Positions 805 through 62,100 are shown, numbered from the stretch's first letter. The stretch is DNA of 64,000 nt from a virus (IMGVR_UViG_3300012940_000021:63912-127911), one strand, 5' to 3'. The notes: generated by a model not told the origin, from the letters alone. Translations and numbers: made by a program.

Positions 805-825
805 CTCTATGTGATATCGGCCTCA
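805..825 (-). promoter_or_regulatory. left-arm conserved motif copy 1 (minus strand GAGGCCGATATCACATAGAGA), followed by GGGCCTTGGCCC hairpin and SD of gene 167-745
   Basis: near-identical 18-20-mer found 6 times, always in gene orientation upstream of starts. Confidence 0.6.
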
Positions 826-1036
826 GTCGCTCGGAGTGGCGACGGCGGTCTCTACCAGTTCCCCGGCGAGGTTGTAGCGGTGGAGGACCCGCGTCACCAC
901 ATCGCCGCGCTGGCGCATCGTTCGCTTGCAGTCGTCGCAGGCGAACTCGATGAGGTTACCCTCGACCACCTGGGGCTTCCCGCCCGAGAGGAGCAGCTTC
1001 GACAGGAGCCGCCGTGGACCAACGGGGCACCGGATC

Positions 1037-2197
1037 TCAACTGTCTGCATGGAACCCATCCCGTCGAGCCATCTGGGCCAGCGTCCAGAGCCGCTCGCCC
1101 TTCTCTGGAAGGGCCTCCCGCAGCTTCAGGAACAGGTTCTCGACCACCTTGTCCCACGAGTGCGATGCGGGCACGACCTGGGCGGCGATGTGGCCCTTCT
1201 CCCGGACCTCCGCTCGATTGCGGAAGCAGTGCAGCATCAGCTCCGCCAGGTGCTGCACGTCGGCGCGAGCGTTCAGGGTCTCCTTGTGGTAGATCGACTC
1301 TGGAGCGAGCGAGTAGTTGAGCGGGTAGGCATAGTCGGGCGACAGCCATTGCTTGTGCCCCGCCCAGTTGGTGGCGATCACCGTGCCGCCCGTGCTCATG
1401 AACTCCAGGGCGGGCATGTTCTTCCCCTCGCCGCGAGAGGGGGCGAGCAGCACGTGCTGGACCTTGTAGAACTCCTTCACGACCGAGGTCGGCCAGATGT
1501 CGTAGAACACCCGGAGCGACGTGTACTCCTGGCCGGTCTCCGGGTCCGTCTGCCGGTAGAGGTCTTCGATCTTGTGGTGCAACCCTGGGGCCGTCGTCTT
1601 CAGGCTGAGCCGCGCCCAGCGGTCGAACTCGGGGTCGGCCTGCTTGGCGCGGTTGAACGCCTCGATGGCGACGAAGGGGTCCTTGCGCTCGGAGAGCACG
1701 CCGATCATGAAGAAGTAGAACTCGCGGCAGTCCCAGTCCCGAGGCAGCTCCGGCCACTCGGTGGGATCGAACCCGCCCTGCTGCACGAAGATCGGCCCCT
1801 TGTAGTAGGGCCGGAAGGAGTCCACGTCGATGTCGGAGTAGCCCACGAAGGCGTCGAACCGCTTCAGGCGCTTGCGGAGGGTCTTCAGCGGCTTCTTGTC
1901 CATGTTGAGCACGTTCGAGTACTCCCACATGGTCCAAGCGATGCTGACCCCGCAGTTGCGGACGACCTCCTCCTTCGCTTCGAGGGCCATCGGGTCCACG
2001 TGGTTGATGAAGAGGTCGAAGGGCGCTCGCAGCTCCTTGGAGAGGAGCATCGCCACGTCCTCTGGAAGGCCGGAATCGACGTGGGTGGGGGACACGTAGA
2101 CATCGGCCCCCCAGCGCATGAGCGCCTGAGCCAGACCGATGCCGTCGTTGCCGTAGCCCGAGTATCTCGACAGCGGGATCTTCAGCAGCACCTTCAT
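1037..2197 (-). CDS. glycosyltransferase, GT-B fold family 1/4 (386 aa)
   Basis: C-terminal motif LAPSRGEGKNMPALEFMSTGGTVIATNWAGH resembling the GT4 E-X7-E nucleotide-sugar binding signature; full-length ORF. Confidence 0.8.
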   Translation of the reverse strand: MKVLLKIPLSRYSGYGNDGIGLAQALMRWGADVYVSPTHVDSGLPEDVAMLLSKELRAPFDLFINHVDPMALEAKEEVVRNCGVSIAWTMWEYSNVLNMDKKPLKTLRKRLKRFDAFVGYSDIDVDSFRPYYKGPIFVQQGGFDPTEWPELPRDWDCREFYFFMIGVLSERKDPFVAIEAFNRAKQADPEFDRWARLSLKTTAPGLHHKIEDLYRQTDPETGQEYTSLRVFYDIWPTSVVKEFYKVQHVLLAPSRGEGKNMPALEFMSTGGTVIATNWAGHKQWLSPDYAYPLNYSLAPESIYHKETLNARADVQHLAELMLHCFRNRAEVREKGHIAAQVVPASHSWDKVVENLFLKLREALPEKGERLWTLAQMARRDGFHADS

Positions 2198-2230
2198 GTG
2201 GACCTCCTGGGTCTCTCTTGTTTTCAGAAA

Positions 2231-2740
2231 CTACGGCTTGTTCACGCCGTAGGTGAGTCGCCCCATGTACGCGCCTTCGGCGTTGCTGATCGGGGAGAAG
2301 GTGGGACCGTCGAGCCGCTGGCTGCCGGTGATGGGCACCCCCGTCTTCGAGGCGATCTGCTCAGCGGTGCCCCAGATGTAGATTTCGCCAGAGGGCGTGC
2401 CGGAATCCACCAGATGCAGGTGCTTGTCCACGAACGCCTGGATGTCCTCGATCTTCTTCTTGGCGTCGAACTTCTTGATCGACTTGTCGGAGTTCCGAGT
2501 CGGGTCGGCCCAGATATCCACGAAGAGGCGAGGGAACCGCATGGTGTTGTGCTGGTTCGGCGTCGTCCAGGTGTCCTCCTCGTTGACGACGATGAGGCAC
2601 CTGCCGGTGTTCTCGACCTTGACGTTGACCGGGTGCTCATCGAAGATCCACGTGTCCCAGCTCTGCGAGCGCCCGAGGAGAGCACGCAGACCTTGGTCCT
2701 GGGCAAGAAGATTTCGAACGGCGAGGGAGAGGTCGGTCAT
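2231..2740 (-). CDS. hypothetical protein (169 aa), head-tail joining/tail region
   Basis: start MTDLSLAVRNLL... ATG at 2740 overlapping stop of upstream gene (ATGA coupling). Confidence 0.55.
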   Translation of the reverse strand: MTDLSLAVRNLLAQDQGLRALLGRSQSWDTWIFDEHPVNVKVENTGRCLIVVNEEDTWTTPNQHNTMRFPRLFVDIWADPTRNSDKSIKKFDAKKKIEDIQAFVDKHLHLVDSGTPSGEIYIWGTAEQIASKTGVPITGSQRLDGPTFSPISNAEGAYMGRLTYGVNKP

Positions 2741-3602: not shown

Positions 3603-3605
3603 GGG

Positions 3606-4177: not shown

Positions 4178-4828
4178 TCAGGCTCGAACGATGGGCACCC
4201 GGCGACCGCGACGGGCATCCGCCTTGGCGATCTCGTCATCGAACTTCTCGTGGCGCAGGCCGACGAACGGGCCGGGGGCGATGTACTGCTTGCCCCAGCG
4301 GTCGTACTGACCCTGCACGTCGTGCGCCAGGTCGAGCCAGGACTCGCCCCGACGGTTGACGGTGCGGAGGTAGTCCGGGCTTCCCTTGACGAACTCCAGC
4401 TCCTGGCCCCGATACCAGACCTCGCCCAGCGCGGTGAAGCCGTCCAGCACGACGTGGATCAGAATCTTCTCGCCGTCGGCCACGGTGTCCGAGTACACCG
4501 GCTCGGCGTGCTCGACAGCGGCGGCGGTGCGGCGAGCGAGCTGGTCCTCCAGGTCCTGGATCTCGCGCTGCTTCTCCGTGAGAGGCGCGGGAACCGCTGG
4601 AGTGGCCGCGAGGGCTGCCTTCAGCTCGCGGATGCGTCGGTCCTCGGCATCCTCCTCCACGACGACGGACGGGGAGGAGGTCCCGGCATCCAGCTTCTCC
4701 GGGGCGTCCAGAGGGTCGGCGTCGGGAGGAGACACCGGCTCTGGAGTCGGCTCTGGAGTCGGCTGCTCGGCGTCGTCGTTCGTGAGATCGAGCAGGTCAT
4801 CGAAGTTGTCGGGAGTGTTCTCGGCCAC
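4178..4828 (-). CDS. hypothetical acidic protein (216 aa) downstream of major capsid gene
   Basis: GTG at 4828 with AGGAGG SD 8 nt upstream and conserved motif immediately upstream; longer ORF to 5056 overlaps capsid gene and is rejected. Confidence 0.5.
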   Translation of the reverse strand: MAENTPDNFDDLLDLTNDDAEQPTPEPTPEPVSPPDADPLDAPEKLDAGTSSPSVVVEEDAEDRRIRELKAALAATPAVPAPLTEKQREIQDLEDQLARRTAAAVEHAEPVYSDTVADGEKILIHVVLDGFTALGEVWYRGQELEFVKGSPDYLRTVNRRGESWLDLAHDVQGQYDRWGKQYIAPGPFVGLRHEKFDDEIAKADARRGRRVPIVRA

Positions 4829-4847: not shown

Positions 4848-4868
4848 TCTCTATGTGATATCGGCCTT
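4848..4868 (-). promoter_or_regulatory. left-arm conserved motif copy 2 (GAAGGCCGATATCACATAGAGACC)
   Basis: identical core to other copies; sits between capsid gene stop and next SD. Confidence 0.6.
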
Positions 4869-4941: not shown

Positions 4942-6054
4942 TCAGGCAGCCTGCGTCACGTTGCTGACGTAGATGAACTGCTCCGGGCGCGTGATGACCG
5001 GCAGGAGGTTCCACTCCAGCAGGTACTGCCGCGCCGACGGGTCCTTGTCCTTCCACGTCTTGGCGAACTTGCCCGTGTAGTTCTCCGGGGCCTCGTCATC
5101 GGCGGTGGGGCCGATGAAGACCTCGATGGGGCGGTTCTCCGTGAAGTTGCCCAGGACGAGGGCGTCGTCCGCGAGGAAGAGCTGCTCCTGGCCGGGGTCC
5201 GTCGGGGACGACGTGTAGGCCGCGCCTGCCGCGTCGTACACCGCCTCCTGCGGACGCCAGTTGAGACCCATGAAGCCCGGCAGCACGCCCGTCTGGTAGT
5301 ACTGGTCCTTCATGCGGTCGGAGAGCAGGATGCCGCCCTGGGTGCCGGGGGCGCTGAGGCCCGCGTTGGCGAACGAGTCGAAGATGTACGCGATGGTCTT
5401 CTCCGTCGCGTAGGCATCCTGCGCCTCGACGCGACCGTCGCGGCGGATGAGGCGCTTCCACGCCCGGATGTCCTCCACGATCTGGCCCGGAGCGGCGCTG
5501 TCCCAGCCGACCGACGGGGACGGCTTGTGGGACGGCAGGAACTTGTAGTCCACCGTCGCCTGGACATCCGGGTAGTCCAGGACCAGCTCACCCGTGAGGG
5601 CCTGCCAGATCATGAACTCCGCGAAGTTGTCGAAGCGCTGGTTGAGGTCCGCGACCTCGCGCAGGACGGCCTCCTCGGCGCGCCGGTTGGCCAGCTCGCT
5701 GATGGAGTTCGCCGCCTGGCGGAGCCAGTGAAGAGTGGTCGGCTCGAAGACCTTCTTCTCCCGGAGGTAGACGAAGGCCGCGCTCTCGGTCGAACGACCG
5801 AGGCGAGGCACGATGTGCGCCTCGGAGTTCGGCACGTTCGGGCGAGCGATGGCACGCGAGCCACGGATCACTTCCCACTGGACGGTGGGGAAGGGGTGCG
5901 GCGTCTGCGGGATGCGGCTGAGCATCTCCAGCGACTCTGGGGCCGTGAAGCGCTCGACCACACCACGGAGAACCGTGGGCTGGAGCAGGGAGATCTCGGG
6001 CACTGGAATCATCCTTTCGTTGCGCCAGAGCTTGACTGGGTTGAGCAGCGACAC
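4942..6054 (-). CDS. major capsid protein (370 aa)
   Basis: size, position after scaffold/decoration genes and before head-tail genes; abundant-protein codon usage. Confidence 0.65.
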   Translation of the reverse strand: MSLLNPVKLWRNERMIPVPEISLLQPTVLRGVVERFTAPESLEMLSRIPQTPHPFPTVQWEVIRGSRAIARPNVPNSEAHIVPRLGRSTESAAFVYLREKKVFEPTTLHWLRQAANSISELANRRAEEAVLREVADLNQRFDNFAEFMIWQALTGELVLDYPDVQATVDYKFLPSHKPSPSVGWDSAAPGQIVEDIRAWKRLIRRDGRVEAQDAYATEKTIAYIFDSFANAGLSAPGTQGGILLSDRMKDQYYQTGVLPGFMGLNWRPQEAVYDAAGAAYTSSPTDPGQEQLFLADDALVLGNFTENRPIEVFIGPTADDEAPENYTGKFAKTWKDKDPSARQYLLEWNLLPVITRPEQFIYVSNVTQAA

Positions 6055-6627: not shown

Positions 6628-7152
6628 TCAGGCGCGAACCTTCGCGCTGGTCTTCTCGGCGGCGATGTTCGAGAGGCGGGCGATCTCCTGCTCGACGGTC
6701 TCCTCGTGGGACTCGTCGGCGGGCTGGAAGCCCTCCTCGACCGAGAGCTTCACGACGGGCTTCTCCGGGATGAGCTTGTCGAAGAGGTCCTTGTTCGTGA
6801 GGCGGAGTTCGAGCATCGCCTCCTTGTCCTTCGGGAGGATGAAGCCGGAGAGCGAGAGCTTCTCGACCTCGGCCTGCGCCTCCTTCTTGGCAGCCTCCTC
6901 GCGGATCTCGTTGACGCTGTTGGTCAGCTCCACGATCTTGTTGCCCGCCTCGGCCACCGCACCGATGAGGGTGTCGGCGTCCACGGTCTCGTCCGTGTTG
7001 GAGAGCTTCAGCAGGCCGGTGCCCACCAGCTCCTCCTGGATCTTGTTGGACAGCGCGAGCGCCTTGTCCGCCTCCGCCGCCTTCGCCTGGAGCGCGGCCA
7101 CGTCGATGCCGTGGTCCGTCTTCAGCTCCGCGAGCAGTTCATCGAGAGTCAT
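6628..7152 (-). CDS. possible nested in-frame scaffolding protein (174 aa, MTLDELLAELK...) made from an internal start, lambda C/Nu3-like
   Basis: internal ATG at 7152 preceded by AAGGAAGAGGAAG and, ~50 nt upstream, an extra copy of the conserved motif inside the coding region. Confidence 0.35.
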   Translation of the reverse strand: MTLDELLAELKTDHGIDVAALQAKAAEADKALALSNKIQEELVGTGLLKLSNTDETVDADTLIGAVAEAGNKIVELTNSVNEIREEAAKKEAQAEVEKLSLSGFILPKDKEAMLELRLTNKDLFDKLIPEKPVVKLSVEEGFQPADESHEETVEQEIARLSNIAAEKTSAKVRA

Positions 7153-7737
7153 CGTGACTTCCTCTTCCTTGGTCTCGGTGGCTGGTGTCAGGACCACCAT
7201 CTGGTTTGTGATATCGGCCCCACGAGCCGACGCTGCGATGACCTCTTCGAATCCGTCGAGGTCGGTGACGTAGGGACGGTTGGTGATGGCCGTGTGAAGG
7301 AGGGTCGGTCCCACCTTCTGACCGGTCTTGGTGTCGGTGTAGTTCAGGTGGAGCATGGCGCTCGCCCCGAGCAGGGTCTTGCCCACCTTGTCCGCGTCCT
7401 CGGTGCGCACGTCGATGTCGGCGTAGAGACCCTTCGGGGTCTTCACGAGGTTGATGACCTCACCAATGTTCCGGTCCGGGTCCTCGGTGTGCTCGTTGTT
7501 CGGTCCCGCCTTCGGGACCTGAACGATGTCGGCCACCTTGTTGCTGAAGTTGGTGATGAGGGTGTCCACGAACTCCTCATCGACCTTCACCTTGCCGCCC
7601 TTGACGCCGGGGTAGATGAGGTCGCCGTAGTGCAGGATCTGCTTGCGGAAGACGCGACCCTGCTTCGAACGCGACAGCGGAATGAAGCCCTCGTCCTTCG
7701 TGGGAGGGACGATAGCGAAGCCATCGAAGTCGGTCAT
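6628..7737 (-). CDS. capsid maturation protease/scaffold fusion-like protein (369 aa): N-terminal globular domain plus C-terminal Glu/Lys/Ala-rich coiled-coil scaffold domain
   Basis: ATG at 7737 directly abutting conserved motif (leaderless arrangement); C-terminal half strongly coiled-coil-like. Confidence 0.55.
   Translation of the reverse strand: MTDFDGFAIVPPTKDEGFIPLSRSKQGRVFRKQILHYGDLIYPGVKGGKVKVDEEFVDTLITNFSNKVADIVQVPKAGPNNEHTEDPDRNIGEVINLVKTPKGLYADIDVRTEDADKVGKTLLGASAMLHLNYTDTKTGQKVGPTLLHTAITNRPYVTDLDGFEEVIAASARGADITNQMVVLTPATETKEEEVTMTLDELLAELKTDHGIDVAALQAKAAEADKALALSNKIQEELVGTGLLKLSNTDETVDADTLIGAVAEAGNKIVELTNSVNEIREEAAKKEAQAEVEKLSLSGFILPKDKEAMLELRLTNKDLFDKLIPEKPVVKLSVEEGFQPADESHEETVEQEIARLSNIAAEKTSAKVRA
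7201..7221 (-). promoter_or_regulatory. left-arm conserved motif copy 3 (GGGGCCGATATCACAAACCAG) located inside the protease/scaffold ORF
   Basis: 13-mer core TGTGATATCGGCC identical to intergenic copies. Confidence 0.5.
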
Positions 7738-7757
7738 GCTATGTGATATCGGCCTCT
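7738..7757 (-). promoter_or_regulatory. left-arm conserved motif copy 4 (AGAGGCCGATATCACATAGC) immediately followed by ATG of the protease/scaffold gene
   Basis: motif-CATAGC-ATGACCGAC identical to copy at 26211. Confidence 0.6.
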
Positions 7758-7828: not shown

Positions 7829-9064
7829 TCAGACCGAGTTGACGAACCGCTGGAAGGCGCTCCAGGTCATCTTGCCGGGGATGCCGTCCACTGGACCCGC
7901 GTACCCCCAGTCGCGCTTCAGCCACCGCTGGAAGGCGCTCCAGGTGTACTTGCCCGGCACCCCGTCGATGGGACCGGTGTAGCCCCAGTACTTGGCGAGG
8001 AACCGCTGGAGCGCCTTGTAGGTGTTCGGGCCGGGGATACCGACCACCGGGCCGGTGTAGCCCCAGTCTCGCTTCAGCCAGAACTGGCCGCGCTTCCACG
8101 TGATCGTGCCGGGCACACCGTCGATCTGGGTCCGAGGCAGCGCCTCCTGAGCTGGAGCGGACGGCTTCGGAGGGTTCTTCAGCGCCTTCCCCGCCCGGCC
8201 CATGGCCGCGTAGGTGAGCGGGCCTGGAATGCCGTCCACGACTCCGGTGTAGCCGTACTCGGCCTTCAACCAGCGCTGCGTCGCTCCCCACGAGAGCTTC
8301 GCTGGAAGGCCGTCGATGATGCCGAGGTAGCCCCACTTCTGCTTCAGGAAGGACTGCATCGCCTGCCAGGTCAGGCGACCTGGAATGCCGTCGATGATGC
8401 CGGAGTAGCCCCACTGACGGGCGAGCCAGGTCTGGAGGCCCTTCCACGCCTCGATGCCTGCCGCACCCCCGAGGTTGTAGCCCGCCGTGCCGTCACCTGC
8501 GGGGCCGGTGCCGCCGCCCCCTGGAATCGGCGCTGGAGCCTGGCCCTGGCCGAGGATCTCCCGAGCGCGGTTGACGATCCAGTCCATGTTGAGGCCACCG
8601 GGGCAGGCGGTGGCGTAGGAGGCCCGGTAGCGGGTCCACAGCTCGCGGTGCCCCTCGACGGTCGAGGTCCGGTTGAGGTCGATGCCGTACCGGCGAGCCA
8701 CGTCGGCGCAGAGCTGGGCGACTCGCTCGTGCGCCTTCGAGGACACCGGCCAGTTTGGAGCGCCCGCCTCGTTCTCGATCTCCAGCGTGATGGAGCGGCG
8801 GTCGAAGGCTGCGCCCTTCCCGCCGTCGGTCGAGGACCCTGAAGTCCAGGCGCGGTCCTCCTCGTCCACCACGCCCGTGATGCGGCCCTCGTTCGAGACC
8901 GTGTAGTTGGAGGAGACCTGGCGCGAGCCGGTCACCATCATGTTGATGACCGCATCGTCGTTGGTCCCCGCCTGGTGGTGGAGCGTGATGTGGTCGATGC
9001 GTGCGCCCTGGCGAGCCGAGCGCTGTGGAGAGCGCCGGATCTGGTCGGTGAGTCCCGAGAACAT
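7829..9064 (-). CDS. endolysin: N-acetylmuramoyl-L-alanine amidase (Amidase_2/PGRP-type) with 6-7 C-terminal PG_binding_1-like repeats (411 aa)
   Basis: HITLHH...GHRELW...ACPGG zinc-ligand pattern of T7-lysozyme-type amidases; repeats WGYxGxxDGxPGxxTWxAxQRFL. Confidence 0.85.
   Translation of the reverse strand: MFSGLTDQIRRSPQRSARQGARIDHITLHHQAGTNDDAVINMMVTGSRQVSSNYTVSNEGRITGVVDEEDRAWTSGSSTDGGKGAAFDRRSITLEIENEAGAPNWPVSSKAHERVAQLCADVARRYGIDLNRTSTVEGHRELWTRYRASYATACPGGLNMDWIVNRAREILGQGQAPAPIPGGGGTGPAGDGTAGYNLGGAAGIEAWKGLQTWLARQWGYSGIIDGIPGRLTWQAMQSFLKQKWGYLGIIDGLPAKLSWGATQRWLKAEYGYTGVVDGIPGPLTYAAMGRAGKALKNPPKPSAPAQEALPRTQIDGVPGTITWKRGQFWLKRDWGYTGPVVGIPGPNTYKALQRFLAKYWGYTGPIDGVPGKYTWSAFQRWLKRDWGYAGPVDGIPGKMTWSAFQRFVNSV
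7832..8497. repeat. tandem ~75-81-bp coding repeats (peptidoglycan-binding modules) in the endolysin gene
   Basis: protein-level repeats ...DGIPGxxTWxAxQRWLK... x6-7. Confidence 0.7.
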
Positions 9065-9361: not shown

Positions 9362-9657
9362 CAGAACTCCTTCATCGTCGTCTTGATGGCCTTCTCCTGC
9401 TCCGCCGAGAGGGGGGCGAACCGGAAGCGCCGACCCTCGGAGTGGAAGACCCAATCGCCGTCCTCGCGGACCATGATGTCCTCGGGGTAGAACACCATGT
9501 CCTTCATCGGCAGCGCCCAGCCGATGACGACCGTCTTGCCCTGGTCTTCTCCGACCTCGACATCGACCATCTCGAAGTTCGGGCGCTCGCCCTCCTGGGC
9601 GACGATCACACCGTGCGGGAAGGCCCGGTGAAGCTCCTCCTGAGTCACTTCGTCCAC
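9361..9657 (-). CDS. hypothetical protein (98 aa)
   Basis: ORF overlapping 13 nt with the end of the giant gene. Confidence 0.5.
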   Translation of the reverse strand: MDEVTQEELHRAFPHGVIVAQEGERPNFEMVDVEVGEDQGKTVVIGWALPMKDMVFYPEDIMVREDGDWVFHSEGRRFRFAPLSAEQEKAIKTTMKEF

Positions 9658-12600
9658 TGAGCCTTCACCTTCGCAATCGCTGCCTGCAAGTTTACGCGCA
9701 TGACGAACCGATCCTCGATGGGCAGTCCTCGGAGCATGGCGAAGCCGAGCGCCTTCATGCGCTGGATGGCCTCGTTCCGCTTCTCGGCGTTGTCGAAGAC
9801 GAAGATCTCCAGGTGGTCGAGGATCGACATCGCGTTCGGAACCATGGTCTCGTTGCTCGATCCGGTGAAGCTGGTCAGCGCCTTCAGCGGGTCGTACTTG
9901 TTCTGGCTCTGCTGGTCCGTGCGATCACCGAAGCGGTCGCCGGAGAACGAGTAGGTGTCCACCTGAGTGAAGACCGACGGGTTCCAGTAGGCCACGTGCT
10001 TGCCGTAGATCGAGCCGGAGAACTCGACGCTCGCCCCGGTGTGCGCGATGCGCGTGAAGACGCTGTTCGCGCCACCCGTCCCCTGGTCGGAGCCGGAGGA
10101 GGCACCCTGCTTGAAGTAGCCGAGGATGCGCAGACGCTCCTCCGTCGAGAGCATTCCACCCGACGTGATGTAGCGCAGGAGCGAGTCGTCCTTGCCGTTG
10201 TTGCCGATGGCCACCATGTGGCCCTTCTTCAGCACCTGCTCCAGGTCCACATCGATGCGCTCGTAGTACGGCTTGCCCGTGGCCAGCTCCGGGTTGGCGA
10301 GGTCCATGTGGTTGAACTTCGGCATGTGCTTGCCCTGGGCGATGAACGAATCGACGCGATCCTTGCCCCAGGCTTCCTCCGAGATGCTGCGGTAGAACGC
10401 CAGCTCTTCGGTGTCGCTCATGCTCAGGCCGATGCCTTCGATGAGGGTCCAGTCGGTGAGGTTCTCCCCGTTCGGTCCCTTGACCGTCTGCTTCTTGTCC
10501 TTCAGCTTCTTCAGGGCGCTCTTCACCGTGGCTGGGGCGCTCGACTCCGCGTAGGTGAAGATGACGCGCTCCCACATCGCACGCCAGTAGTTCAGCTCCG
10601 CCTGGGTCTCATCGGCCCCCGTGAGGTCGAGGCCCATGAGTTCGAGCTGGGACTGCACCCGAGCGAGCGAGGCTTCCTTGTCCGGCCCGACGAGGCGGAA
10701 CGACACGGTGCCGCGCTGCGACCGAGCGGTGTTCGTGCTCGTGGAGTTGCGGAAGAAGATGACCTCGCCGGACGGCAGCGTGATCCGGTACTCCTTGCCG
10801 GTGTGCCCGGACGTGCCCTCGTCCTTCGAGTTCTCGACCTTCAGACCACCCTCGTTGAGGGTGCCGCCCTTGCCCGCCGCAGACTGGACGGTGTACAGGA
10901 CCTCCTTGACCGCCTCCTGCGGCTCGGCCTCGACGTTGTTGGTCCAGCCGTCCGGCAGGGCGTTGGGGTCCACCGGCAGCGCCCCGACCGAGACCTCGGA
11001 CCCCTTGGACGAGAGCCACTGCCCGTTCGCCAGCTCGGTGTAGGTGATGCCGTCGGGGCTGACGATGATCCGCCCCTCGACCTTCGGAGCGAGGCCCTGG
11101 AAGACCGTGAAGTCGCCCTTGTTGGTCGTGCCTCCCTCGGAGATGGCCGTCTTCACCTTGCCGATCTGGGTGAAGTAGTGGTCCAGCATCATCTTGTACT
11201 GGGAGAGGTACTCCGGCGCGACTCGCTTGCCCGACGGGAACTCCACGTAGTCGGCGTTGCCCTCTGGCTCCAGGTCCGGCTTCCAGAAGGCGGCGTCCGC
11301 CAGGAGGGTCTGCTCCAGGCTGTTGAACGCCGAGATGATGTCGGGGTCGTACTCCTTGTCCACCGAGTTCTTGGTGACGTTCTTGCCCGCCGCCGTGATG
11401 GTGGACTTCCAGTCGTTCGTCGTTGGGAACTGTGCCTGGTTCAGGTAGATCGGCTGGGTGTTGACCGAGTTGACCTGAACCTGCTGCGCCTTCGGCTGGA
11501 GGAAGGCCAGCAGCTTGTTCTGGGCGAGGTCCCCGAGCGTGATCTGGCCCTTGTGCAGCTCCTCCCCGGTCTCGTTCTGCTCGGTCCAGAGCAGCGAGTG
11601 GCCGTTGTGGATCGAGGCGCTTCCGTGCAGCGGGGCGGCTCCCCAGACCTTGGTCTCGGCTGCCTTGTCGAGAACGCCCGGCTCGTCCCAACCGGAGATG
11701 TGCTCCTCGAAGACGGTCGGCGGCTCCTCGGGGAGTCCTCCGAATCCGGCGTCCTGGAAGATCTTGTCCCACATCTGGTCGATCTGCTCGACCAGCTTGC
11801 TCTTGCGGTGGAGGAACGCCTTCACGAGCTGGTCCGCGTTCGCCGGAGCATTGCGGTGCGTGAAGTGGGTCATGTAGTCCGGCACGTCCCAGTTCGTGCG
11901 GAACTCGACCGCCTCGCGGACCATCTGCTCGGCAGCGGCGTCGTCGGACTTCTGGATGCGGGACGCCGCCTTGCGGGCACCCTGGTACGCCTTGACGGCG
12001 GTCTCGTAGTCGATGGTGCCGTTGCGGATCTTGTCGTAGAGCTGGGTGTAGACCAGGGTGGCGTTCGTGTGCGCCGAAGCGTCCCCAGAGATGCCGTTCC
12101 AGTTGCCGTAGACGAAGAACGCCCGCCCCTTGTCGATGCCGACCACTCCGCCGCTCGGCGTCATCAGGAGGTTGTCCGGGTGGGTGTCGTCGTTGTCGAG
12201 CGCCCAGTCGAGCACGTGCTCAGCCGCGATGGCCGCGAGCTGCTTCTCGTTGAGGGTCTCCATTTGGATCTCGCCATCGCCGTTACCGGCGAACGACCCT
12301 ACGTTGTCCACGAAGTTCTGAATGAGTCCCTCGTGACCGTCCTCGGTGGTCGCCATGACCGTCTTGGCCGACTGGAAGCCCCACATCCGAGCCAGCTCGT
12401 TGGCCTTGTGCTCCATCTGGGCGCGGGCCTTCTGGTCCTCGCTGTTCCAGGGCTTGAAGATGTACTTCCGGTCGAACTGGTCCTTGACGAGCCAGACCTC
12501 GTGGCTGCCCTTGTCGATCTGCTCCACCTTGAAGTACTTGGGCTTGTTCAGCTCCTCCAAGTACGCGGCGTGCTTGGCGTCGAAGTAGGCGGCGACGATC

Positions 12601-15600
12601 TCCTCGGACTTGTACTTCGTGCTGTAGTCGGTGTTCGAGGGGTCCCACTCCAGACCCCCGACCGACGTGTCGTAGTTGGAGTAGAACTCCTTGAAGTCCG
12701 GGTCCTGGAAGTGGTCCTTCGCCCAGTCGGTCGTCACGTCGTAGGGGGTGGCCTTCCAGATGCTGCCCTGCGGCCACGGAGTGTCCGGGTTGTTTTCGAA
12801 AACGTGGTCGTAGCTCTTGGCGGGCTGCACGTCGTCGGTCCAGGTCGGAGCATCCGAGAGCGCGGCGTCGCCGTTCTGCTTGCGGACCTGCGCGAGCGCG
12901 GAGAGCTGGTCCACCTTCTCCTTCTGGCCCTGCTTGTGAGCGAGGACCCACTGGCGCTTCTCCGCGTTCGACAGGAACGTCGGGTTCTGCATCTGGGCCT
13001 TGATGAGGTAGTTCTGGATCTCCGGGAGGGATGGCTCGATGCCCGGCGAGGTCCAGTTGCCCTCCACCGGCTCACCTGCCGGAATCTCCCCCTCGACGGC
13101 AGGCCCCCAGGTGATCTGATGCGTGGCCTCGCTGCCCTCGTAGCCGGGGTGCAGGTAGCCCGAGTTGTGGGCCTTCCCCTCCTTGGCAGCCGCCGAGACC
13201 TCGATCTGGTAGAGCGCCTTGAAGTCGCCCTTCTTGAACGCCGCGACCCACTTCTGGCGCTCCCACTTGTCCATCTTGGTCAGGTGCTGGCCGATGATCT
13301 TGCCGTCACCGATGGACGCCGACGCCGCCTTGATGTACGAGCCGAGGGAGTTCTTGTCGTAGGAGTTGACGGTGAGCGCCGCGACCGAGGCGGGGAACTT
13401 GGCGTAGCCCATCTCGTTCCACTCGAAGAGGTCGGCGGCGTTCGCCTCGGGCGTGCTGGTGTCCACCCCGGAGAGGAGGCCGTCCATGGCCTCCTTCAGT
13501 GCCTGCACCGCGTTCTCGGGGGTGTTCTCCGTGAAGCCGTTCTCCGCACGCCACTTGACCCAGAGCGGCTGCTGCCAGAAGACGCCGAGGCTCTTCAGCT
13601 TCTCGCCCATGGCGTAGGCGCTCTCGTCCGTCACCGTGTCGAGGTACTGCCGAGCCTGCATCAGCGACGGGACGGTCGTCTGCGAGCCGAAGAAGAACAC
13701 CGACCCGGTGTAGCCCTCTGGCAGCACGGACATGCCGAACTTGTCCGTGAGCTGCCCCTTCGAGAAGAGCGTGTTGACCTTCTTCTTGTCGAACTCCACC
13801 GGGTCCTGGAGGCCGTGGCTGAGGACGTGCGAGTAGTAGGTGGCCCAGATGTTGGGCTGTTCCTCGGGAGGCTTGACCTCCTCCCCGGTCTTGGGGTCCG
13901 TGAAGTGCCACTTGCCGTCGGAGTGCTTCGTGGCCTCGTAGGGCTGCACGTACTCGCCGTCTTCGTAGTGCGAACTCGTGACCTCGTACTTCGCTCCCAC
14001 GCCTGCGGCGTTCAGCCAATCGGTTGTCGGGTAGCCCCCGATCTTGACCCCGGTCATGGCGGTCACGTCGGTCTTGGGCTTGAAGATCTTCGCCGTGTCG
14101 GTCGAGACCTCGTAAACCGCCGTCTTGGGGTTCTGCGGGCTTCCGGCGAAGTAGGTGCCCGGAGTGAGATCCGACACGACGACGGGCTTCTTCGGCGCGG
14201 CCTTCGCCGTGGGCGACGGGATGTCGTCGGGCATCCCGTGGTACTCCTTCATGCCCTTGTCGTAGTTCGTCTTCACCGCCTTGGCCGTGAGCTTCGACAC
14301 CCCGCCCTTGGTGTTGACGTAGACGCCCGTGCCGTCGGCGGCGACGACCATGTACGCCTTGCCTCCCGGCGAGGAGTACTTGCCGGGCACGATCTCCGGG
14401 TTCTCATTGAGGGTCGGGTTCTCCACCGGGGAGAAGTCCCAGTCGCCCTGCATGGCGTTGAACATCTCGGAGTCGTTCATGAACCCGAAGCCGTTGTCGG
14501 AGAGGTTGTCTCCCGTCTTGGCGTCGTAGATCGTCCAGTGGTCCTCCCCCTCCTTCACCGCGACCATCTGGAAGTCCGTGCCGGGCGCACCGTTCTGAGC
14601 CTTGGTGCCGACCGGAGCGTCCTGGACCACCTTCAACGAGAAGTCACCGTCGTCCTTGCTCAGCTCCTCCTGCTGCTTGTCCTGGAGCGCCGGAGGGGTC
14701 TTCGCGTAGTCGGGCAGCACGTCCGGCTTCGACTCGATGCGGAGGAACCCGTTGTCGATGGCCCCCGAGAAGGAGTCCTCGCCCAGCACATTTCCACTGC
14801 CGTCGTCGGTCCACTGCGCCGCGCTGATCTTGGTGTAGGTGTGCGGAATCCCTCCGGTGCCCTGCCAACGCACCACGGTTCCCACAGGGAGACCCGACAG
14901 CTCTTCGAGGCTCTTCACCTTCGGGTGCTGGATGTCGGTCTCCGTGCGGACCAGCTTGGCCTTCAGGAGGTCGATGAACTTCTGCTTGGTGACCGTCTTG
15001 TCCTTGTCGAAGCCGACGATGGAGTTCGGGTTGAGAGACCCGAGAGCGTTCATCTTCTTGTTCAGCTCGGACTTGAAGTTCTTGCCCTGGAACGATTCCA
15101 GGATGTCGATGGCCTGCTGGACCTGGGACATCGTGAACTCTCCGCCGTCCATGCCCTGCACGCCCGTGCTCTTCGGCGTCTTCGAGCCGATCCAGACCTT
15201 GGGGGCGTTCTCCTCCTCGACGCTCGTCCCTTCCTCGATGCCGATGGAGTCCTTCAGGTACTTGATGACGGCAGGCTTGGCCTTCAGATCCGGGTACTTG
15301 TTGAGCGCGGCGACCTTCAAGGACTCCTGGTTCTCGGCGCTCTTCAGCGGGTTGCTGTCCGGCAGCGCCTTCAGGCCGTAGCTGACGTGGAAGGACGAGT
15401 GCTCCTCCAAAGCCTTGTACGCCTCCGCGATCTGGATGGAGGACATGGCCGGAGCACCTGGCCAGAGCTGCTTGTCCTTGGCTCCGAAGCTGCTCTCCGG
15501 GGCCTTCGGCGCGACGTAGCGCAGATTCCCCGCCGCGACGGCATCGCCCATGTCGCCGGGCGTGAACGCCAGGTTCGGCCACTTCGGATCGTCGGCGGGA

Positions 15601-20087: not shown

Positions 20088-20128
20088 TCTTCTGGCCAGA
20101 AGAATGTCTGCTCTGTGATATCGGCCTC
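20088..20128 (-). promoter_or_regulatory. left-arm conserved motif copy 5 (AGAGGCCGATATCACAGAGCAGACA) followed by 16-bp perfect palindrome TCTTCTGGCCAGAAGA, upstream of the giant gene
   Basis: seen in sequence. Confidence 0.6.
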
Positions 20129-25763: not shown

Positions 25764-26210
25764 CTACTGGCCGATGGCGGCGTACTTCTCCGCGAAGTGC
25801 CGACGGACGCGCTGGCGCTCGGACGCATCCGAGATGAGTTCCACGGCCTCCAGCGAGATCTTGGTGACCTCCTCCATGAGCGCGGCGCGGAGCTGCTCCT
25901 GGCTGACCTGGAGCACGCGGTTCCACTCCTTCAGCAGGTCGAGCCACTGAGCATTGAAGTCCTTCTCGGTGTTGACTCCGACCCAGCCGTGCTCCTCGCG
26001 GTACTTGATGATGAGGTAGCGAGTGACGATGCGCTCCAGCAGGATCTCCTGGGCGGTGTGCATCGGGATGCCGAAGGCTTCGGCGCGCAGGCGGCTCTTC
26101 AGCTCGTCGTGGAGCGCGAGCAGCTCGGGGTCCTGGGCGATGTACTCCGGCAGACGGAACGCTCGTTCGAGACCGTCAGCGGGTGCTGCATCGAGATCGC
26201 GGTCGGTCAT
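25764..26210 (-). CDS. hypothetical protein (148 aa), possible terminase small subunit by position
   Basis: ATG at 26210 immediately after conserved motif (leaderless arrangement identical to 7737). Confidence 0.4.
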   Translation of the reverse strand: MTDRDLDAAPADGLERAFRLPEYIAQDPELLALHDELKSRLRAEAFGIPMHTAQEILLERIVTRYLIIKYREEHGWVGVNTEKDFNAQWLDLLKEWNRVLQVSQEQLRAALMEEVTKISLEAVELISDASERQRVRRHFAEKYAAIGQ

Positions 26211-26230
26211 GCTATGTGATATCGGCCTCG
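26211..26230 (-). promoter_or_regulatory. left-arm conserved motif copy 6 (CGAGGCCGATATCACATAGC + ATG); its TAG is the stop codon of the upstream GT2 gene
   Basis: seen in sequence. Confidence 0.6.
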
Positions 26231-27719: not shown

Positions 27720-27723
27720 CGCC

Positions 27724-30638: not shown

Positions 30639-30657
30639 TCACGTTGTGATACGTCCG
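30639..30657 (-). promoter_or_regulatory. right-arm conserved motif (GGACGTATCACAACGTGAA) abutting start of 29987-30637
   Basis: core CGTATCAC shared by >=9 sites. Confidence 0.55.
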
Positions 30658-41065: not shown

Positions 41066-41083
41066 TTCAGAGAGTGATACGCC
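41066..41083 (-). promoter_or_regulatory. right-arm conserved motif (GGCGTATCACTCTCTGAA); its TGA is the stop of the Cas4-like gene
   Basis: 18-mer identical to copy at 42947-42964. Confidence 0.55.
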
Positions 41084-42712: not shown

Positions 42713-42904
42713 TCACTTCCCGTCGAAGTCGATGGTGACGCCGCCGACGTTCATGCCGAGCGAGCCGTCGGAGAGGTCGATGGCGAGACCGCCACCCAGG
42801 CCCATCGTGAGGTCGCCTTGGGTGTCGATTCCGATGCGGCCCGAGTTGTCGCGCTGGCACTCGGAGTCCCAGCAGTTGAAGCGGTTGTGCGCCTTGCAGT
42901 TCAC
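42713..42904 (-). CDS. hypothetical small protein (63 aa)
   Basis: GTG start with GAGGAA; downstream of right-arm motif. Confidence 0.4.
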   Translation of the reverse strand: MNCKAHNRFNCWDSECQRDNSGRIGIDTQGDLTMGLGGGLAIDLSDGSLGMNVGGVTIDFDGK

Positions 42905-42946: not shown

Positions 42947-42964
42947 TTCAGAGAGTGATACGCC
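42947..42964 (-). promoter_or_regulatory. right-arm conserved motif (GGCGTATCACTCTCTGAA), copy 2 of identical 18-mer
   Basis: seen in sequence. Confidence 0.55.
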
Positions 42965-46879: not shown

Positions 46880-46897
46880 TCACGTGGGTGATACGCC
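46880..46897 (-). promoter_or_regulatory. right-arm motif (GGCGTATCACCCACGTGA); GTGA supplies stop of upstream and possible start of downstream gene
   Basis: seen in sequence. Confidence 0.5.
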
Positions 46898-51041: not shown

Positions 51042-51055
51042 GTGGGTGATACGCC
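51038..51055 (-). promoter_or_regulatory. right-arm motif (GGCGTATCACCCACGTGA) preceded by terminator-like hairpins
   Basis: seen in sequence. Confidence 0.55.
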
Positions 51056-55298: not shown

Positions 55299-55312
55299 GT
55301 GTGTGATACGCC
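55295..55312 (-). promoter_or_regulatory. right-arm motif (GGCGTATCACACACGTGAA)
   Basis: seen in sequence. Confidence 0.5.
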
Positions 55313-56740: not shown

Positions 56741-56962
56741 CTACCGTGTGATACGGCGCTGAAGGTCTTTCAGCAACGCTTCGGACTGCACGACGGTGAT
56801 GGCGGTGCTGCCGTGCTCCTGAGCGTGCTGCTCCAGCGAGTTGCCATCGACCTTGGGCGACGGGCAGCCGTCCTCGGTGCAGCGGAAGATGACCGAGGCG
56901 TTGGGGTCGGCTCCCTCCGCTAGCGGCTGGAGCACGAACGTGGTCTTGCGGTCGTTGGTCAC
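56741..56962 (-). CDS. hypothetical small Cys/His protein (73 aa)
   Basis: GTG in GTGA overlap; FRCTEDGCPSPKVDGNSLEQHAQEH. Confidence 0.35.
   Translation of the reverse strand: MTNDRKTTFVLQPLAEGADPNASVIFRCTEDGCPSPKVDGNSLEQHAQEHGSTAITVVQSEALLKDLQRRITR
56745..56759 (-). promoter_or_regulatory. right-arm motif variant (GCGCCGTATCACACGG) followed by TAGGAGGACACG-ATG
   Basis: seen in sequence. Confidence 0.45.
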
Positions 56963-59407: not shown

Positions 59408-61794
59408 GCTACAGGACGCCCTCGTAGGCGTAGCGGTGGATCTCGACCACGGGGAACGCCCCCTCGCGCTCGGGTCCGGCCTCCCGCCAGTGGACGACAT
59501 CGACGCGGCCCAGCCCTCTGCCGTCGTACAGGACCCATGTGCCGTCCGGTAGGCGTAGGTCGGCCATCGTGCTCCCGTCGTGGCGCACACGGCGCGTGGT
59601 GCCCGCTCTGGGGCCGTTCACGGGGGCCAGGACGGTCATAGCGACTTCACCAGGCAGTCGGGGCACGTCACGTCCTCCTCCTTGGTCGAAGCGCTGATCT
59701 TCGCCCTCTCCCCGTCGTCCGAGTGGAACCGGATGCCGCATGCGGTCGTCCACGGGGTCTGCTGCACGTCCCACAGGTGGACCGGCAGGTAGGTGAACTG
59801 GCTCTGTCGCACCGCTCTGTCGCACCGCTCGGTCAGTGGCTCGCTCCAGCTCGTCGGCGGCGAGTCCCAGGGCGGCTGCGAATCCGGCCTTGAACGCCTC
59901 GGCCTCTCTCGTTCCCATGCCGGGCCGGTAGAACCGCTGCCAGGCTCTCCCGACGGGCGTCAGGGGATCGTTGACCGGCTCCACGTGAACGGGGTCCGGG
60001 CCAGGGGTGCCGTTGCACTGCACGTCGGGGTAGGGGCCTTCGTTGAACACGACGGTGTGCAGGTGGGGCGCGTGCGGCTCTTGGCGTCCACAGTGGCTCC
60101 AGGTCCCTACGTCGCCCTCTGTCGGCTTCGGGGGCGGCGGGGTGTAGTCCTCCCGGAACATGGCGAACGGGTCGCGCTCGGTCACAGGTCCAGCCCTTCG
60201 GTCGGGTCGATGCGGCGTCGGAACCGCTTGCCGAACGATGCGCAGTCGGCCACCACGGTCTGGGTGCGTGCGGTCTCCGGTTCCGTCCGGTAGGTGACCT
60301 CGTGGACGCGCTCCCCGAACCGGTAGGTGCGCCACTCGACGCCCAGAATCTTCACGGCGCGCCCCTGGGAACCGCGCTGCTCCCAGATGTCGCCCGCCAC
60401 GGGGTGCGGCTTCGTGGGGTCGTGGACGGCCCGTGTCATCTCGTGAACTCCTCGACCGTGAGGTTGACGCGCTCCCCGGTCTCGTAGCTCCAGTCCACCA
60501 GCCCTCCGCCTCGGATGCGGACCTTCGTCACGCCCTTGGACGTGTGCGTCACCATGGTGATGCGCGCCCATCCCCACTCGTAGCGGTAGGCGGGATCGTC
60601 AGCCTCTGGCAGGTCCGTGGGCCACTGCTCGCGGGGGAGGTAGCGGATGCGCGCCCAGATCCCCTTGCCGATGTCCTGCGCGGTGAGGTCGCCTGCGCGC
60701 TTCCAGACGCTCTGCGCGGTCACTGCTCGATCACCTTCTCCACGGGAGTCCACGGTCCGGCGACCCGCGTGAGCAACTGCGCCTCCGGCCTGCCCGCCTT
60801 CATCGTTTCGGCCAGCAGGGGGTTCGTCGTGACGTAGGTGAGACCTGGCTGCGGGGAATCGAAGCCCCACTCCTGGGTCTGTGGCGCACGGGGCGCGAAG
60901 TCCTCCTCCAGTCCGATCTGAGCGGCGTCCGCGACCGCCTGCCGAATCTTGTCGCCTGCGAGGTCGTATGCCTCCATGACCTGCCGGGCGATCTGGTCGG
61001 CGCGCTCTTCAGCGGTCATCACATCTCCTTCAGGATGAGGTAGCTCTTCACGGGGCCGATGCGCCCGTGGGTCTTGCACTCCACGGGGTCGTTCGGATGC
61101 GCGGCCTTCCAGTCCCGGATCTGCGCCGCGTGCTCGTCGCACAGGTACATGAGCTGCCCGGTCGTCGCCTCGCACTCGGGGCCGTAGACGTACCCTGCGG
61201 GCCGTCGGCACCCCTTGGCCTCGCACGTGACGTTCTGGGGCTTGCCCAGTAGGAACCCGTCGCTCACCGGACTACCAGCCGCTCTGCGAGGGCCGCGTAG
61301 ACGGGGGCCTTCGTCCGCACGTCGGCATCCGCTGCCAGGTGCGCTGCGTAGCCGGACACGGTGGCGCGCTCGTCGTGCGCCTCGGGGAGGACCTGCGCCC
61401 CGCTCTCTTCGTAGACGGCGCTCATCGTGCTTCCGCCTCTCGGATGACGTACTCGACGGCGGGGCCGATGCACTCGGGCGAGCACGCATAGACGGCGGGG
61501 ATCGGGCCTCCTCCGCCTTCGTGGTGGTAGGTCCCCCTTCCCAGGTAGTACCCCAGGGCCGGTTCGTAGCGGCTCGTCACCCTCGGCGGCGTCCTGCACG
61601 CGGGGTTGTCGCACTCCATGACCTCGGCGCGGCGCTTGCCCATCAGTCGGCCTCCTCTCGGATGTGCGCCTTCAGGTCTTCCGTGGCCTCGTCGGCGGTG
61701 TCTCCCCAGATGCGCTCTCCGCAGTAGCAGTCCGCGTAGAACTGATCCCGGTTGGCGTCCCAGGTGGGCCGCGATGCGAGGGGGCGATGGTCGG

Positions 61795-62031
61795 TCACGT
61801 GCGATCCCCTCGGCTCTGCGCGAGGGTGGCGTGGATCTGCGCCCGCATGAGGGCGGCATCCTGCGCCTCCCGCTCACGGTGGAGCTGAATCATGATCTCG
61901 TCGGCGCTCCGGGTGAACCCCTGCGCGAGGGCGTGCTTGCGCGCCTCGTCCAGCTCTGCGATCCGCTGCGTGTGGAGGTCGGCCTGCGTCAGCAGCTCCT
62001 CGGCCTTGGCGTAGTGCTCTGCGGGGGACAT
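61795..62031 (-). CDS. hypothetical protein (78 aa)
   Basis: ORF downstream of motif + inverted repeat. Confidence 0.4.
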   Translation of the reverse strand: MSPAEHYAKAEELLTQADLHTQRIAELDEARKHALAQGFTRSADEIMIQLHREREAQDAALMRAQIHATLAQSRGDRT

Positions 62032-62073
62032 GTAAGCGGTAATCCTTTTTCGAGAAACGTCGTTACCGCTTAC
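62032..62073. repeat. 11-bp inverted repeat GTAAGCGGTAA ... TTACCGCTTAC separated by 20 nt; GTAAGCGGTAAT also present at ~30680
   Basis: seen in sequence. Confidence 0.5.
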
Positions 62074-62083
62074 GGGAGCGGCC

Positions 62084-62100
62084 TTCGTGAGTGATACGGC
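62084..62100 (-). promoter_or_regulatory. right-arm motif variant (GCCGTATCACTCACGAAGG)
   Basis: seen in sequence. Confidence 0.45.

Follow-up and report, generated by a model that had tools for sequence, protein, structure and literature searches.

Two families of repeated gene-oriented motifs as the likely promoter classes of a soil actinobacteriophage that carries a FliA/WhiG-like sigma factor

The viral DNA stretch IMGVR_UViG_3300012940_000021:63912-127911 (64,000 nt, GC content about 65%), hereafter the window, carries two families of short repeated motifs close to gene starts, one in its left and one in its right arm, and this analysis concerns their function and the factors that may read them. 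The window corresponds to positions 786-64785, reverse-complemented, of the 128,478-bp metagenome contig k141_473844 (ENA ERZ27256362). A codon-usage gene call gave about 82 genes: structural and packaging genes are found between position 1 and about 30.6 kb on the minus strand, a short gene block lies on the plus strand at 31.4-36 kb, and the remainder (36-64 kb) carries small non-structural genes, again on the minus strand. Megablast against 50,697 phage records identified a single relative, the Microbacterium phage Magritte (OR553905, 133 kb, host M. foliorum), with 75-79% nucleotide identity in structural genes only; the gene order of the window is syntenic with Magritte from 100 kb to 133 kb and then from 1 to 30 kb. 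A terminase profile retrieved about 150 related loci from JGI metagenomes and IMG/VR, mostly on contigs of 120-150 kb with 49-68% GC, so more than 100 related metagenomic loci stand beside this one cultured relative found in the phage database. The window most likely represents half of the 128-kb genome of a lytic siphovirus, a soil actinobacteriophage related to Magritte.

Both motif families are real and gene-oriented, as the original prediction had claimed, with counts far above shuffled expectation. Allowing up to two mismatches, GATATCACATAG matched six times, always on the minus (gene) strand, compared to 0.98 matches expected from shuffles, and none of 100 shuffles reached six. With one mismatch allowed, the right-arm sequence GGCGTATCAC matched 11 times versus 2.7 expected; nine of these 11 matches contain the exact core CGTATCAC, eight on the minus strand and one on the plus strand facing the plus-strand gene block (Table 1). 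The hexamer TATCAC occurs 16 times in the 64 kb, and its 14 gene-strand occurrences are accounted for by six CCGATATCAC in the left arm and eight CGTATCAC in the right arm, with none other. The proposed TATCAC core common to both families thus stood within the window; outside this lineage it did not, as the left-arm family of Magritte reads CGATATCCCTG and has no TATCAC. Inspection also confirmed that two left-arm copies have the form CATAGC-ATGACCGAC and three right-arm copies the form CGTATCAC-NN-ACGTGA, that the 18-mer GGCGTATCACTCTCTGAA is duplicated (at 41074 and 42955), and that the 16-mer CAGCGGCGTATCACTC is duplicated as well (at 31181 and 41074).

Each motif copy is followed by an open reading frame (ORF) in matching orientation. 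The left-arm copies are located 6-70 nt 5’ of start codons, and eight of the nine right-arm copies 5-60 nt 5’ of the start of a same-orientation ORF, the distance being 245 nt for the plus-strand copy. Four copies (26216, 41074, 46888 and 56748) extend into the 3’ end of the gene before them, and a left-arm copy (7204-7221) lies within the scaffold gene. This implies that the motifs are not mere intergenic filler and that they are maintained against coding constraints. Several copies directly abut start codons without a Shine-Dalgarno sequence, which indicates leaderless mRNAs; in three right-arm copies the core is followed by exactly NCAC and then by a GTG that opens an ORF of coding-like composition. 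Since leaderless mRNAs with ATG or GTG are common in actinobacterial translation (PMC3898074), such starts fit the presumed host group. Altogether, placement and spacing support the promoter behaviour originally proposed, and the repeated motifs most likely constitute the two main promoter classes of this phage.

All six left-arm sites (6/6) have counterparts in Magritte at orthologous positions. Magritte contains ten gene-strand copies of CGATATCCCTG and none of GATATCAC, and six of the ten, located 5’ of g9, the giant gene g17, the scaffold gene g19, g23 and the major tail protein gene g33 and inside g19, are orthologous to those of the window. The motifs of both phages share the 5’ half GGYCGATATC, and their 3’ half is altered in concert at every site, reading ACATAG in the window and CCTGAC/G in Magritte; going by the sequences, such a change would fit motifs that co-evolved with a factor carried by the phage. 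Among the related loci, CGATA stands directly 5’ of the g9 orthologue in 41/60 loci (68%, versus 3-4% of random windows from the same loci) and directly 5’ of the scaffold orthologue, where the upstream cores are of CCGATA type, in 20/37 loci (54%, versus 3-4% of random windows). The aligned clade logo reads ggCCGATA with no information upstream or downstream, and the start codon very often follows 8-9 nt after the CCGATA core without a Shine-Dalgarno sequence. In Magritte, two copies are situated in the region of the tRNA genes; two more copies on the window’s contig, GAGGCCGATATCACATAG and GGACGATATCACAAGG, precede the lysis cassette. An exact-pattern scan of IMG/VR for GCGTATCACYCACRTGA returned three contigs of 48% GC with one copy each and without similarity to Magritte, which were judged to be chance matches.

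The conserved part of the left-arm family resembles a known promoter element. The sigma-28 promoter consensus, common to actinobacterial WhiG, consists of a -35 TAAA and a -10 GCCGATAA (PMC8325347). In the open complex of Pseudomonas aeruginosa sigma-28, GCCGATAA spans -15 to -8, where GC serves as extended -10 and CGA forms the core; the base -11A flips out, contacts are made to -12G and -13C, and -7 is neither flipped nor conserved (PMC12784957). The sigma-28 -10 element GCCGATA(A/T) is present as GCCGATAT in all six window copies (within GAGGCCGATATCACATAG) and in four Magritte copies, the remaining Magritte copies and the clade having CCGATA or TCGATA instead. With the leaderless ATG taken as +1, GCCGATAT lies at exactly -15 to -8 in Magritte g9, g19 and g98. 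Promoters of the actinobacterial housekeeping SigA have a -10 hexamer TANNNT at -12 to -7 in which -11A and -7T are conserved (PMC3898074), and the earlier remark that the motifs misfit this element in the right register holds: the hexamers TATCAC/TATAAC end in C in all of about 35 copies examined, and relative to leaderless starts they span -10 to -5 or -11 to -6, which places the TA 1-2 nt too near the start for SigA.

Neither a sigma factor nor a polymerase was detected among the window proteins, 58 of which were scanned against Pfam. The rest of the genome, where a search for a sigma-like gene had been suggested, did contain one: walking along the contig from the last gene of locus L010 led to a FliA/WhiG-like sigma gene of 235 aa (L174:19617-20324, record about 83.4-84.1 kb), located about 19 kb beyond the window’s left edge. 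Its best PDB matches, all end to end, are E. coli FliA (6pmi, 2e-10), Aquifex FliA (1rp3) and Streptomyces WhiG (6pfv). The region 2.3-3.0 block is conserved (FARRRITGAIMDWQRARDHVPK versus YAVQRIRGAMLDELRSRDWVPR; RI(R/T)GA..D...R..D..P) and includes the Asp equivalent to D87, a residue implicated in reading -12G/-13C. The Magritte orthologue g47, annotated as “DNA binding protein”, matches Pfam Sigma70_r4_2 (3.4e-9) and Sigma70_r4, with weak region 2 and region 3 matches, and passes the NCBIfam sigma-70 superfamily model TIGR02937 with 51 bits versus a cut-off of 42.9 (family range 51-68 bits). FliA_WhiG (TIGR02479) is the best NCBIfam match of g47 and the best or near-best of five homologues, over the full length and with E values of 3e-14 to 5e-21; homologues of g47 are named “sigma factor FliA” by JGI.

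A FliA-class sigma gene was found in every relative examined at this region (Magritte, loci L166-L175 and the window’s contig), always 3’ of an SNF2 helicase gene. No close bacterial homologue was present in 185,579 bacterial species genomes except on one misbinned phage contig, which argues for a phage lineage of this sigma rather than recent acquisition from a host.

We read the left-arm family as -35-less late promoters of the sigma-28 (FliA/SigD/WhiG) class that are recognized by the phage’s own FliA-like sigma, and put the probability of this reading at roughly 0.7; the sigma pairing, the transcription start sites and the timing are predictions from sequence. Like the promoters of FliA, Bacillus subtilis SigD and WhiG, the left-arm copies have the -10 GCCGATA(A/T), which at the predicted starts would stand at about -15 to -8 with the -11A and an unconserved -7, and the sigma encoded by the phage finds its best matches in FliA and WhiG. 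They differ from these systems in that the TAAA -35 is absent, that the sigma is phage-borne and scores far under the family’s trusted cut-off, and that the proposed target genes belong to virion and lysis functions, many of them with predicted leaderless mRNAs; furthermore, no anti-sigma factor (FlgM or RsiG) was identified for the phage. The original argument for a phage specificity factor is supported for the left arm, where the class of the sigma matches that of the promoters, and would extend to the right arm only if a phage factor reads that family as well.

Several observations weigh against this assignment. The FliA_WhiG scores of the phage proteins (53-75 bits) compare with a trusted cut-off of 189.6 and mark a diverged relation rather than a true FliA, and in the sigma of the window’s contig Thr takes the place of the Arg corresponding to R82. 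The phage sigma has a region 4, yet the late promoters have no conserved -35: neither TAAA, which would be expected about 15 bp 5’ of GCCGATAA, nor any other conserved -35 was found in the window copies, the Magritte copies or 89 aligned upstream regions, where the information content falls to about 0 beyond -17. If the ATG is taken as +1, the leaderless promoters of the window (7737 and 26210) have GCCGATAT at -16 to -9, 1 nt beyond the canonical position. Both of these starts have alternatives: an in-frame ATG of the scaffold gene at 7776, used by the ENA gene caller, would put the motif at 7739-7756 into coding sequence, and the start at 26210 lies 1 nt from the upstream stop, where translational coupling could replace a leaderless start. 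Moreover, CGN-TANNNT is a common extended -10 of mycobacterial SigA promoters (PMC3898074), with which CGA-TANNN has sequence in common but neither the register nor the conserved -7T.

The same start-proximal placement could also reflect a role at the RNA level, the motifs being processing sites that yield leaderless mRNAs or translation signals resembling the start-associated sequences (SAS) and extended SAS (ESAS) of Cluster K and EF phages. Spacing to the start codons is fixed, copies inside upstream coding sequences would be transcribed by read-through, and Microbacterium phages of Cluster EF are known to have SAS-type elements (PMC7302621). However, SAS/ESAS occupy the position of the ribosome-binding site and are complementary to the 3’ end of 16S rRNA (PMC7302621), while the motifs described here have no GGAGG-like core and neither contain nor replace a Shine-Dalgarno sequence, which in the leadered copies follows 15-60 nt downstream. 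Several copies come after terminator hairpins, the Magritte copy before g98 follows a tRNA gene and has no upstream ORF, and the match to the sigma-28 -10 together with a matching sigma would have to be a coincidence. We consider an RNA-level role highly improbable, and the sigma-28-type promoter reading is retained for the left-arm copies collected in Table 1.

Table 1. Motif copies of the two families in the window. Core match, match to GATATCACATAG (left arm) or position of CGTATCAC (right arm).
Feature	Position	Strand	Sequence	Core match	Context in the window	Counterpart in relatives
Putative late promoter 1	26212-26229	-	GAGGCCGATATCACATAG	26212-26223	Then C and predicted leaderless ATG 26210-26208 of gene 25764-26210; overlaps TAG stop of upstream glycosyltransferase gene	Magritte GGCCGATATCCCTGAC-ATG, 5338-5355
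Putative late promoter 2	20111-20128	-	GAGGCCGATATCACAGAG	20111-20122	Then palindrome TCTTCTGGCCAGAAGA, Shine-Dalgarno and GTG 20075 of 3476-aa ORF	5’ of Magritte g17 (11981) and of L008 giant gene (11039)
Putative late promoter 3	7739-7756	-	GAGGCCGATATCACATAG	7739-7750	Then C and predicted leaderless ATG 7737-7735 of scaffold-like gene 6628-7737	Magritte g19, annotated ATG at 18374 immediately after CCGATATCCCTGAC
Putative late-type promoter 4	7204-7221	-	GGGGCCGATATCACAAAC	7204-7215	Inside scaffold-like gene; then hairpin, Shine-Dalgarno and ATG	Kept within Magritte g19 at 18889
Putative late promoter 5	4851-4868	-	GAAGGCCGATATCACATAG	4851-4862	5’ of gene 4178-4828; just after strong hairpin terminator 3’ of major capsid gene	Magritte 21966, 5’ of g23
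Putative late promoter 6	807-824	-	GAGGCCGATATCACATAG	807-818	Then hairpin and Shine-Dalgarno; 5’ of major tail protein gene 167-745	Magritte 29541, 5’ of g33
Putative early/middle core	30646-30655	-	GACGTATCAC	30646	ATG 30637 of exonuclease-like gene 8 nt downstream, first gene of leftward operon	
Putative early/middle core	31177-31186	+	GGCGTATCAC	31179-31186	TTGCTG 17 bp upstream; faces plus-strand block starting at 31431	
Putative early/middle core	41074-41083	-	GGCGTATCAC	41074	In 3’ end of PD-(D/E)XK nuclease gene; then Shine-Dalgarno and GTG 41054 of Dam-like methyltransferase gene	Same position in Magritte (127224), clearly orthologous
Putative early/middle core	42955-42964	-	GGCGTATCAC	42955	5’ of gene 42713-42904	
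Putative early/middle core	46888-46897	-	GGCGTATCAC	46888	Then CCAC and predicted leaderless GTG 46883-46881	
Putative early/middle core	51046-51055	-	GGCGTATCAC	51046	Then CCAC and predicted leaderless GTG 51041-51039; TTGTCA 18 bp upstream	
Putative early/middle core	55303-55312	-	GGCGTATCAC	55303	Then ACAC and predicted leaderless GTG 55298-55296; 60-aa ORF, third-codon-position GC 0.85	
Putative early/middle core	56748-56757	-	GCCGTATCAC	56748	Then Shine-Dalgarno and ATG 56731; TTGCTG 17 bp upstream	
Putative early/middle core	62091-62100	-	GCCGTATCAC	62091	TTGCCG 17 bp upstream; 60-nt leader, ATG 62031	

The copy inside the scaffold-like gene (7204-7221) may drive a nested, separately transcribed shorter product corresponding to the C-terminal part of the scaffold. 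Close to the scaffold-like gene, an amidase/endolysin-like gene (7829-9064, minus strand; PHROG endolysin 1.5e-33; Amidase_2) is embedded among the head-morphogenesis genes, at a great distance from the lysis cassette with its holin, which lies beyond the window (L174 15.7-17.5 kb). Just 5’ of putative late promoter 1, an epimerase/UDP-glucose dehydrogenase-like gene and two glycosyltransferase genes form a sugar-modification module (26212-28641, minus strand), and an additional glycosyltransferase gene is found among the tail genes (1037-2197).

The right-arm (early/middle) family has another architecture. In the window, a weak -35 of TTGnnn type is followed after 17-18 bp by GGCGTATCAC, with the start codon 4 nt further on in leaderless copies. 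The gene strand of Magritte contains (G/C)CGTATCAC 11 times, with the continuation YCAC/CTAC/CTAT-ATG in nine cases; copies of the form GCGTATCAC-YCAC-ATG coincide several times with annotated starts (including g77, g119, g155, g222 and g228), and two copies come directly after terminator hairpins. With the start codon taken as +1, the right-arm register would be G-14 G-13 C-12 G-11 T-10 A-9 T-8 C-7, so that the two classes share T-10 A-9 T-8 C-7 and differ at -14 to -11, which are the positions specifying sigma-28 recognition. In six phages the SNF2 helicase-sigma operon is preceded by a variant promoter of this family, TTGTTC-N18-GGCGTATAAC; what comes next is a Shine-Dalgarno sequence in some cases and, after 4 nt, a leaderless GTG in others. 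Consensus sigma-70-type promoters were not enriched in the right arm (1 versus 1.5 expected and 0 versus 1.0 expected).

The motif-adjacent ATGs suggest starts other than those annotated for Magritte g9, g189, g218 and g245. A putative early promoter precedes a leaderless ATG at position 133181 of Magritte, and this ATG shares its reading frame with gene 1, which is annotated from base 1 (L003 33171-33228 / L001 1-291); gene 1 probably begins at 133181 and was truncated by arbitrary linearisation of a circularly permuted genome.

The divergent control region between the leftward operon and the plus-strand block additionally contains two canonical promoters of the sigma-70/SigA-like type, TTGACC-N17-TACAGT (31168-31140, minus strand) and TTGCAA-N15-TATAGT (31361-31387, plus strand), and a strong bidirectional hairpin at about 31089-31130. 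These two promoters may be true host-dependent immediate-early promoters.

The reader of the right-arm class may be a host sigma or a second, weakly sigma-like protein. Compared to promoters of extracytoplasmic function (ECF) sigmas, the right-arm CGT (CGTA at -12 to -9) is in register, but the -35 is of TTG/GTT and not of GGAAC/AAC type. The Magritte gp60 family, also present in loci L171 and L173, has a weak N-terminal Sigma70_r2 match below the cut-off (E = 1.3e-3), weak matches to SigX/ECF models (25 bits) and to RpoE in PDB (E = 0.12), and a C-terminal helix-turn-helix that matches sigma region 4 with E = 0.0018 and an hhalign probability of only 15%. As these matches are weak and fragmentary only, the gp60 family was not accepted as a second sigma. 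A cascade of two phage sigmas that transcribes the whole genome from non-host promoters, the gp60 family reading GGCGTAT(C/A)AC as a highly divergent sigma2-sigma4 protein and the FliA-like sigma reading GCCGATAT, is a tentative proposal that we hold to be rather doubtful. Upstream of the gp60-type gene, a region conserved in three phages (Magritte L002 3426-3644, L171 18520-18712 and L173 16975-17151) runs from GTTGACC through a hairpin and its T-run to GGTCAA and a Shine-Dalgarno sequence, and looks like a regulated attenuator or terminator; the Magritte gap also contains a minus-strand GCGTATCAC.

Alternatively, host sigmas alone could read both families, the late one by a host FliA/WhiG-type sigma or by SigA through a CGN-extended -10 and the early one by SigA, with the phage sigma acting elsewhere. 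The TTG-type -35 of the right arm at 17-18 bp and a TAT(C/A)AC that is one base from TATAAT agree with this, as do the frequent CGN-TANNNT in mycobacterial SigA promoters and the WhiG-class sigmas that Actinobacteria possess; since the right-arm class drives nearly all non-structural genes and the sigma gene, at least part of this class must be read by something already present when infection starts. We nevertheless regard host sigmas as an unlikely explanation for both families. The final T of TANNNT is absent from both families in the phage and the position is unconserved across the clade, the register of TATCAC relative to leaderless starts is not -12 to -7, and the two canonical TANNNT-type promoters of the divergent region look different. 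The concerted change of the late 3’ half between two phages is hard to reconcile with host sigmas, which are too conserved to make it likely, and a FliA-class sigma was present in every relative examined.

Asymmetric, oriented repeats near gene boundaries also occur in Cluster A mycobacteriophages, as stoperators, and the motifs could be binding sites for a phage regulator (an operator, a stoperator-type site or an activator site) on or near promoters rather than core promoter elements. The motifs share with stoperators their one-orientation 13-18-bp repeats near gene boundaries, GATATC is palindromic, and a TetR-family protein is encoded in the right arm; they also resemble unexplained 18-bp repeats of Microbacterium Cluster EC/EI phages (PMC7302621). 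Against regulator sites, the leaderless copies fill the whole of -1 to -20 and leave no room for another promoter element, the conserved core equals a sigma -10 element already described and would stand in its proper register, the annotation of Magritte lists neither an integrase nor a repressor, and a separate operator candidate exists. We judge regulator sites very unlikely and keep to core promoter elements. The operator candidate, which may equally be an RNA hairpin, is the 11-mer TTACCGCTTAC with three copies versus 0.15 expected: that at 30679-30689 (minus strand) covers the -35 region of the early promoter at 30646, and those at 62032-62042 (minus strand) and 62063-62073 (plus strand) form an inverted pair in the leader 3’ of the early promoter at 62091.

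The original prediction had further noted a likeness to the initiation region of T7-type promoters, together with the lack of a single-subunit RNA polymerase gene in the window. The latter observation agrees with our searches, and the former did not survive the comparison with relatives, as the resembling part TCACATAG (similar to TCACTATAG) is the least conserved part of the motif, reading CCTGAC in Magritte and varying across the clade. A phage RNA polymerase, either T7-like or delivered with the virion, would fit the contiguous conserved block of 18-22 bp that, as in T7-type promoters, extends to the start site, and the superficial TCAC(T)ATAG similarity of TCACATAG to TCACTATAG. Virion polymerases of the N4 type are encoded at a head-module position, which here is occupied by an orphan giant protein, the 3476-aa ORF (9645-20075, minus strand) between portal-proximal genes and the amidase/scaffold pair. 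T7-like promoters have a cognate single-subunit polymerase and a conserved -17 to +6 block; here no such polymerase was detected, none is annotated in the complete Magritte genome, and it is the T7-like portion that differs between relatives. For the giant ORF, neither Pfam nor PHROG nor PDB gave any similarity, and DxDGD and T7-type catalytic motifs are absent, so that a role as virion polymerase is unsupported. Its orthologues are poorly conserved in length and sequence (Magritte g17, 1991 aa; L008, 2270 aa), being only about 20-33% identical over short stretches. Recognition by a phage polymerase therefore appears extremely improbable, and the FliA-like sigma remains our preferred reader of the left-arm class.

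Taken together, the motif positions suggest the following transcription programme. The host core polymerase would first use the GGCGTAT(C/A)AC promoters, with transcripts predicted to start exactly 4 nt after this element, often at a leaderless GTG in the window and a leaderless ATG in Magritte, and would thereby express the non-structural genes and the helicase-sigma operon. As the presumed driver of this operon, the right-arm class would have to act before the late class. The 235-aa FliA-like sigma would then redirect the host core polymerase to the -35-less GCCGATAT promoters, where transcription is predicted to start 7-8 nt 3’ of GCCGATAT; at 7737 and 26210 this would be the A of the ATG and yield a leaderless mRNA, and the other late copies would give a short hairpin-containing leader with a Shine-Dalgarno sequence. 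The late promoters would activate packaging, head, tail and lysis genes in units comprising g9 with terminase-portal, the giant gene, the scaffold with its nested unit, the post-capsid head genes, the tail genes and the lysis cassette. Some of these units follow terminators, for instance the strong hairpin after the capsid gene.

Phage sigma cascades are a classical and already known kind of system. The late -10 of the Bacillus phage SPO1, GATATT, is close to the GATAT(C/T) of this phage. In the SPO1 cascade, host SigA serves early, gp28 middle and gp34 late promoters (PMC13401047), so that phage sigmas stepwise redirect the host core polymerase to promoter classes with their own consensus, as proposed here. 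The phage described here differs in host phylum and sigma lineage, in that only one sigma is firmly identified and the gp60 family is only suggestive, and in that no gp33-like partner is known for it. The late promoters of T4, TATAAATA, are read by the sigma gp55 and have no -35, and in both phages the late class is defined by an extended -10-type element alone with a phage sigma as reader. T4 gp55 has no region 4 and needs gp33 and the sliding clamp, to which T4 couples its late transcription; in contrast, the sigma of this phage has regions 2, 3 and 4. The phage also encodes a clamp-loader/RFC-like AAA ATPase (28638-29699, minus strand; DNA_pol3_delta2, RFC lid) and a sliding-clamp-like protein, a right-arm product that matches the N-terminal clamp domain (DNA_pol3_beta, 1e-7).

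Microbacterium phages of Clusters EC and EI carry a sigma gene and 5-12 oriented copies of an 18-bp motif upstream of genes, for which the function was stated to be unknown (PMC7302621). They share with this phage the combination of a phage-encoded sigma and a repeated oriented motif 5’ of genes. However, these are unrelated smaller phages, and their motif TAGaCTCTaGGTgTaAgC lies 21-30 bp 5’ of starts, ahead of the ribosome-binding site, and was linked to no sigma class. In the searchable literature we found no description of the motifs analysed here or of a FliA-like phage sigma in actinobacteriophages. A clade-wide FliA/WhiG-class sigma, a matching orthologous -35-less late promoter of the sigma-28 type and extensive leaderless early and late mRNAs thus appear to be undescribed.

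The analysis assigns a conserved protein, until now labelled “DNA binding protein”, to the FliA/WhiG class of sigma factors and offers a concrete transcription programme for a large and nearly unstudied clade of 120-150-kb soil actinobacteriophages, with genome-wide promoter predictions that include leaderless starts and a nested scaffold promoter and with several corrected gene starts. It also offers a model for the unexplained oriented repeats of other sigma-carrying Microbacterium phages and suggests compact, orthogonal, -35-less promoter-sigma pairs for high-GC hosts. If the two-sigma cascade were true, the phage sigma could cross-activate host WhiG/FliA regulons, as the late class employs the cellular flagellar/WhiG promoter code, and host anti-sigma factors could equally block the phage sigma, which would link infection to host motility or development. 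On the reading preferred here, a phage lineage would have taken over the flagellar/WhiG promoter code for the expression of its virion genes.

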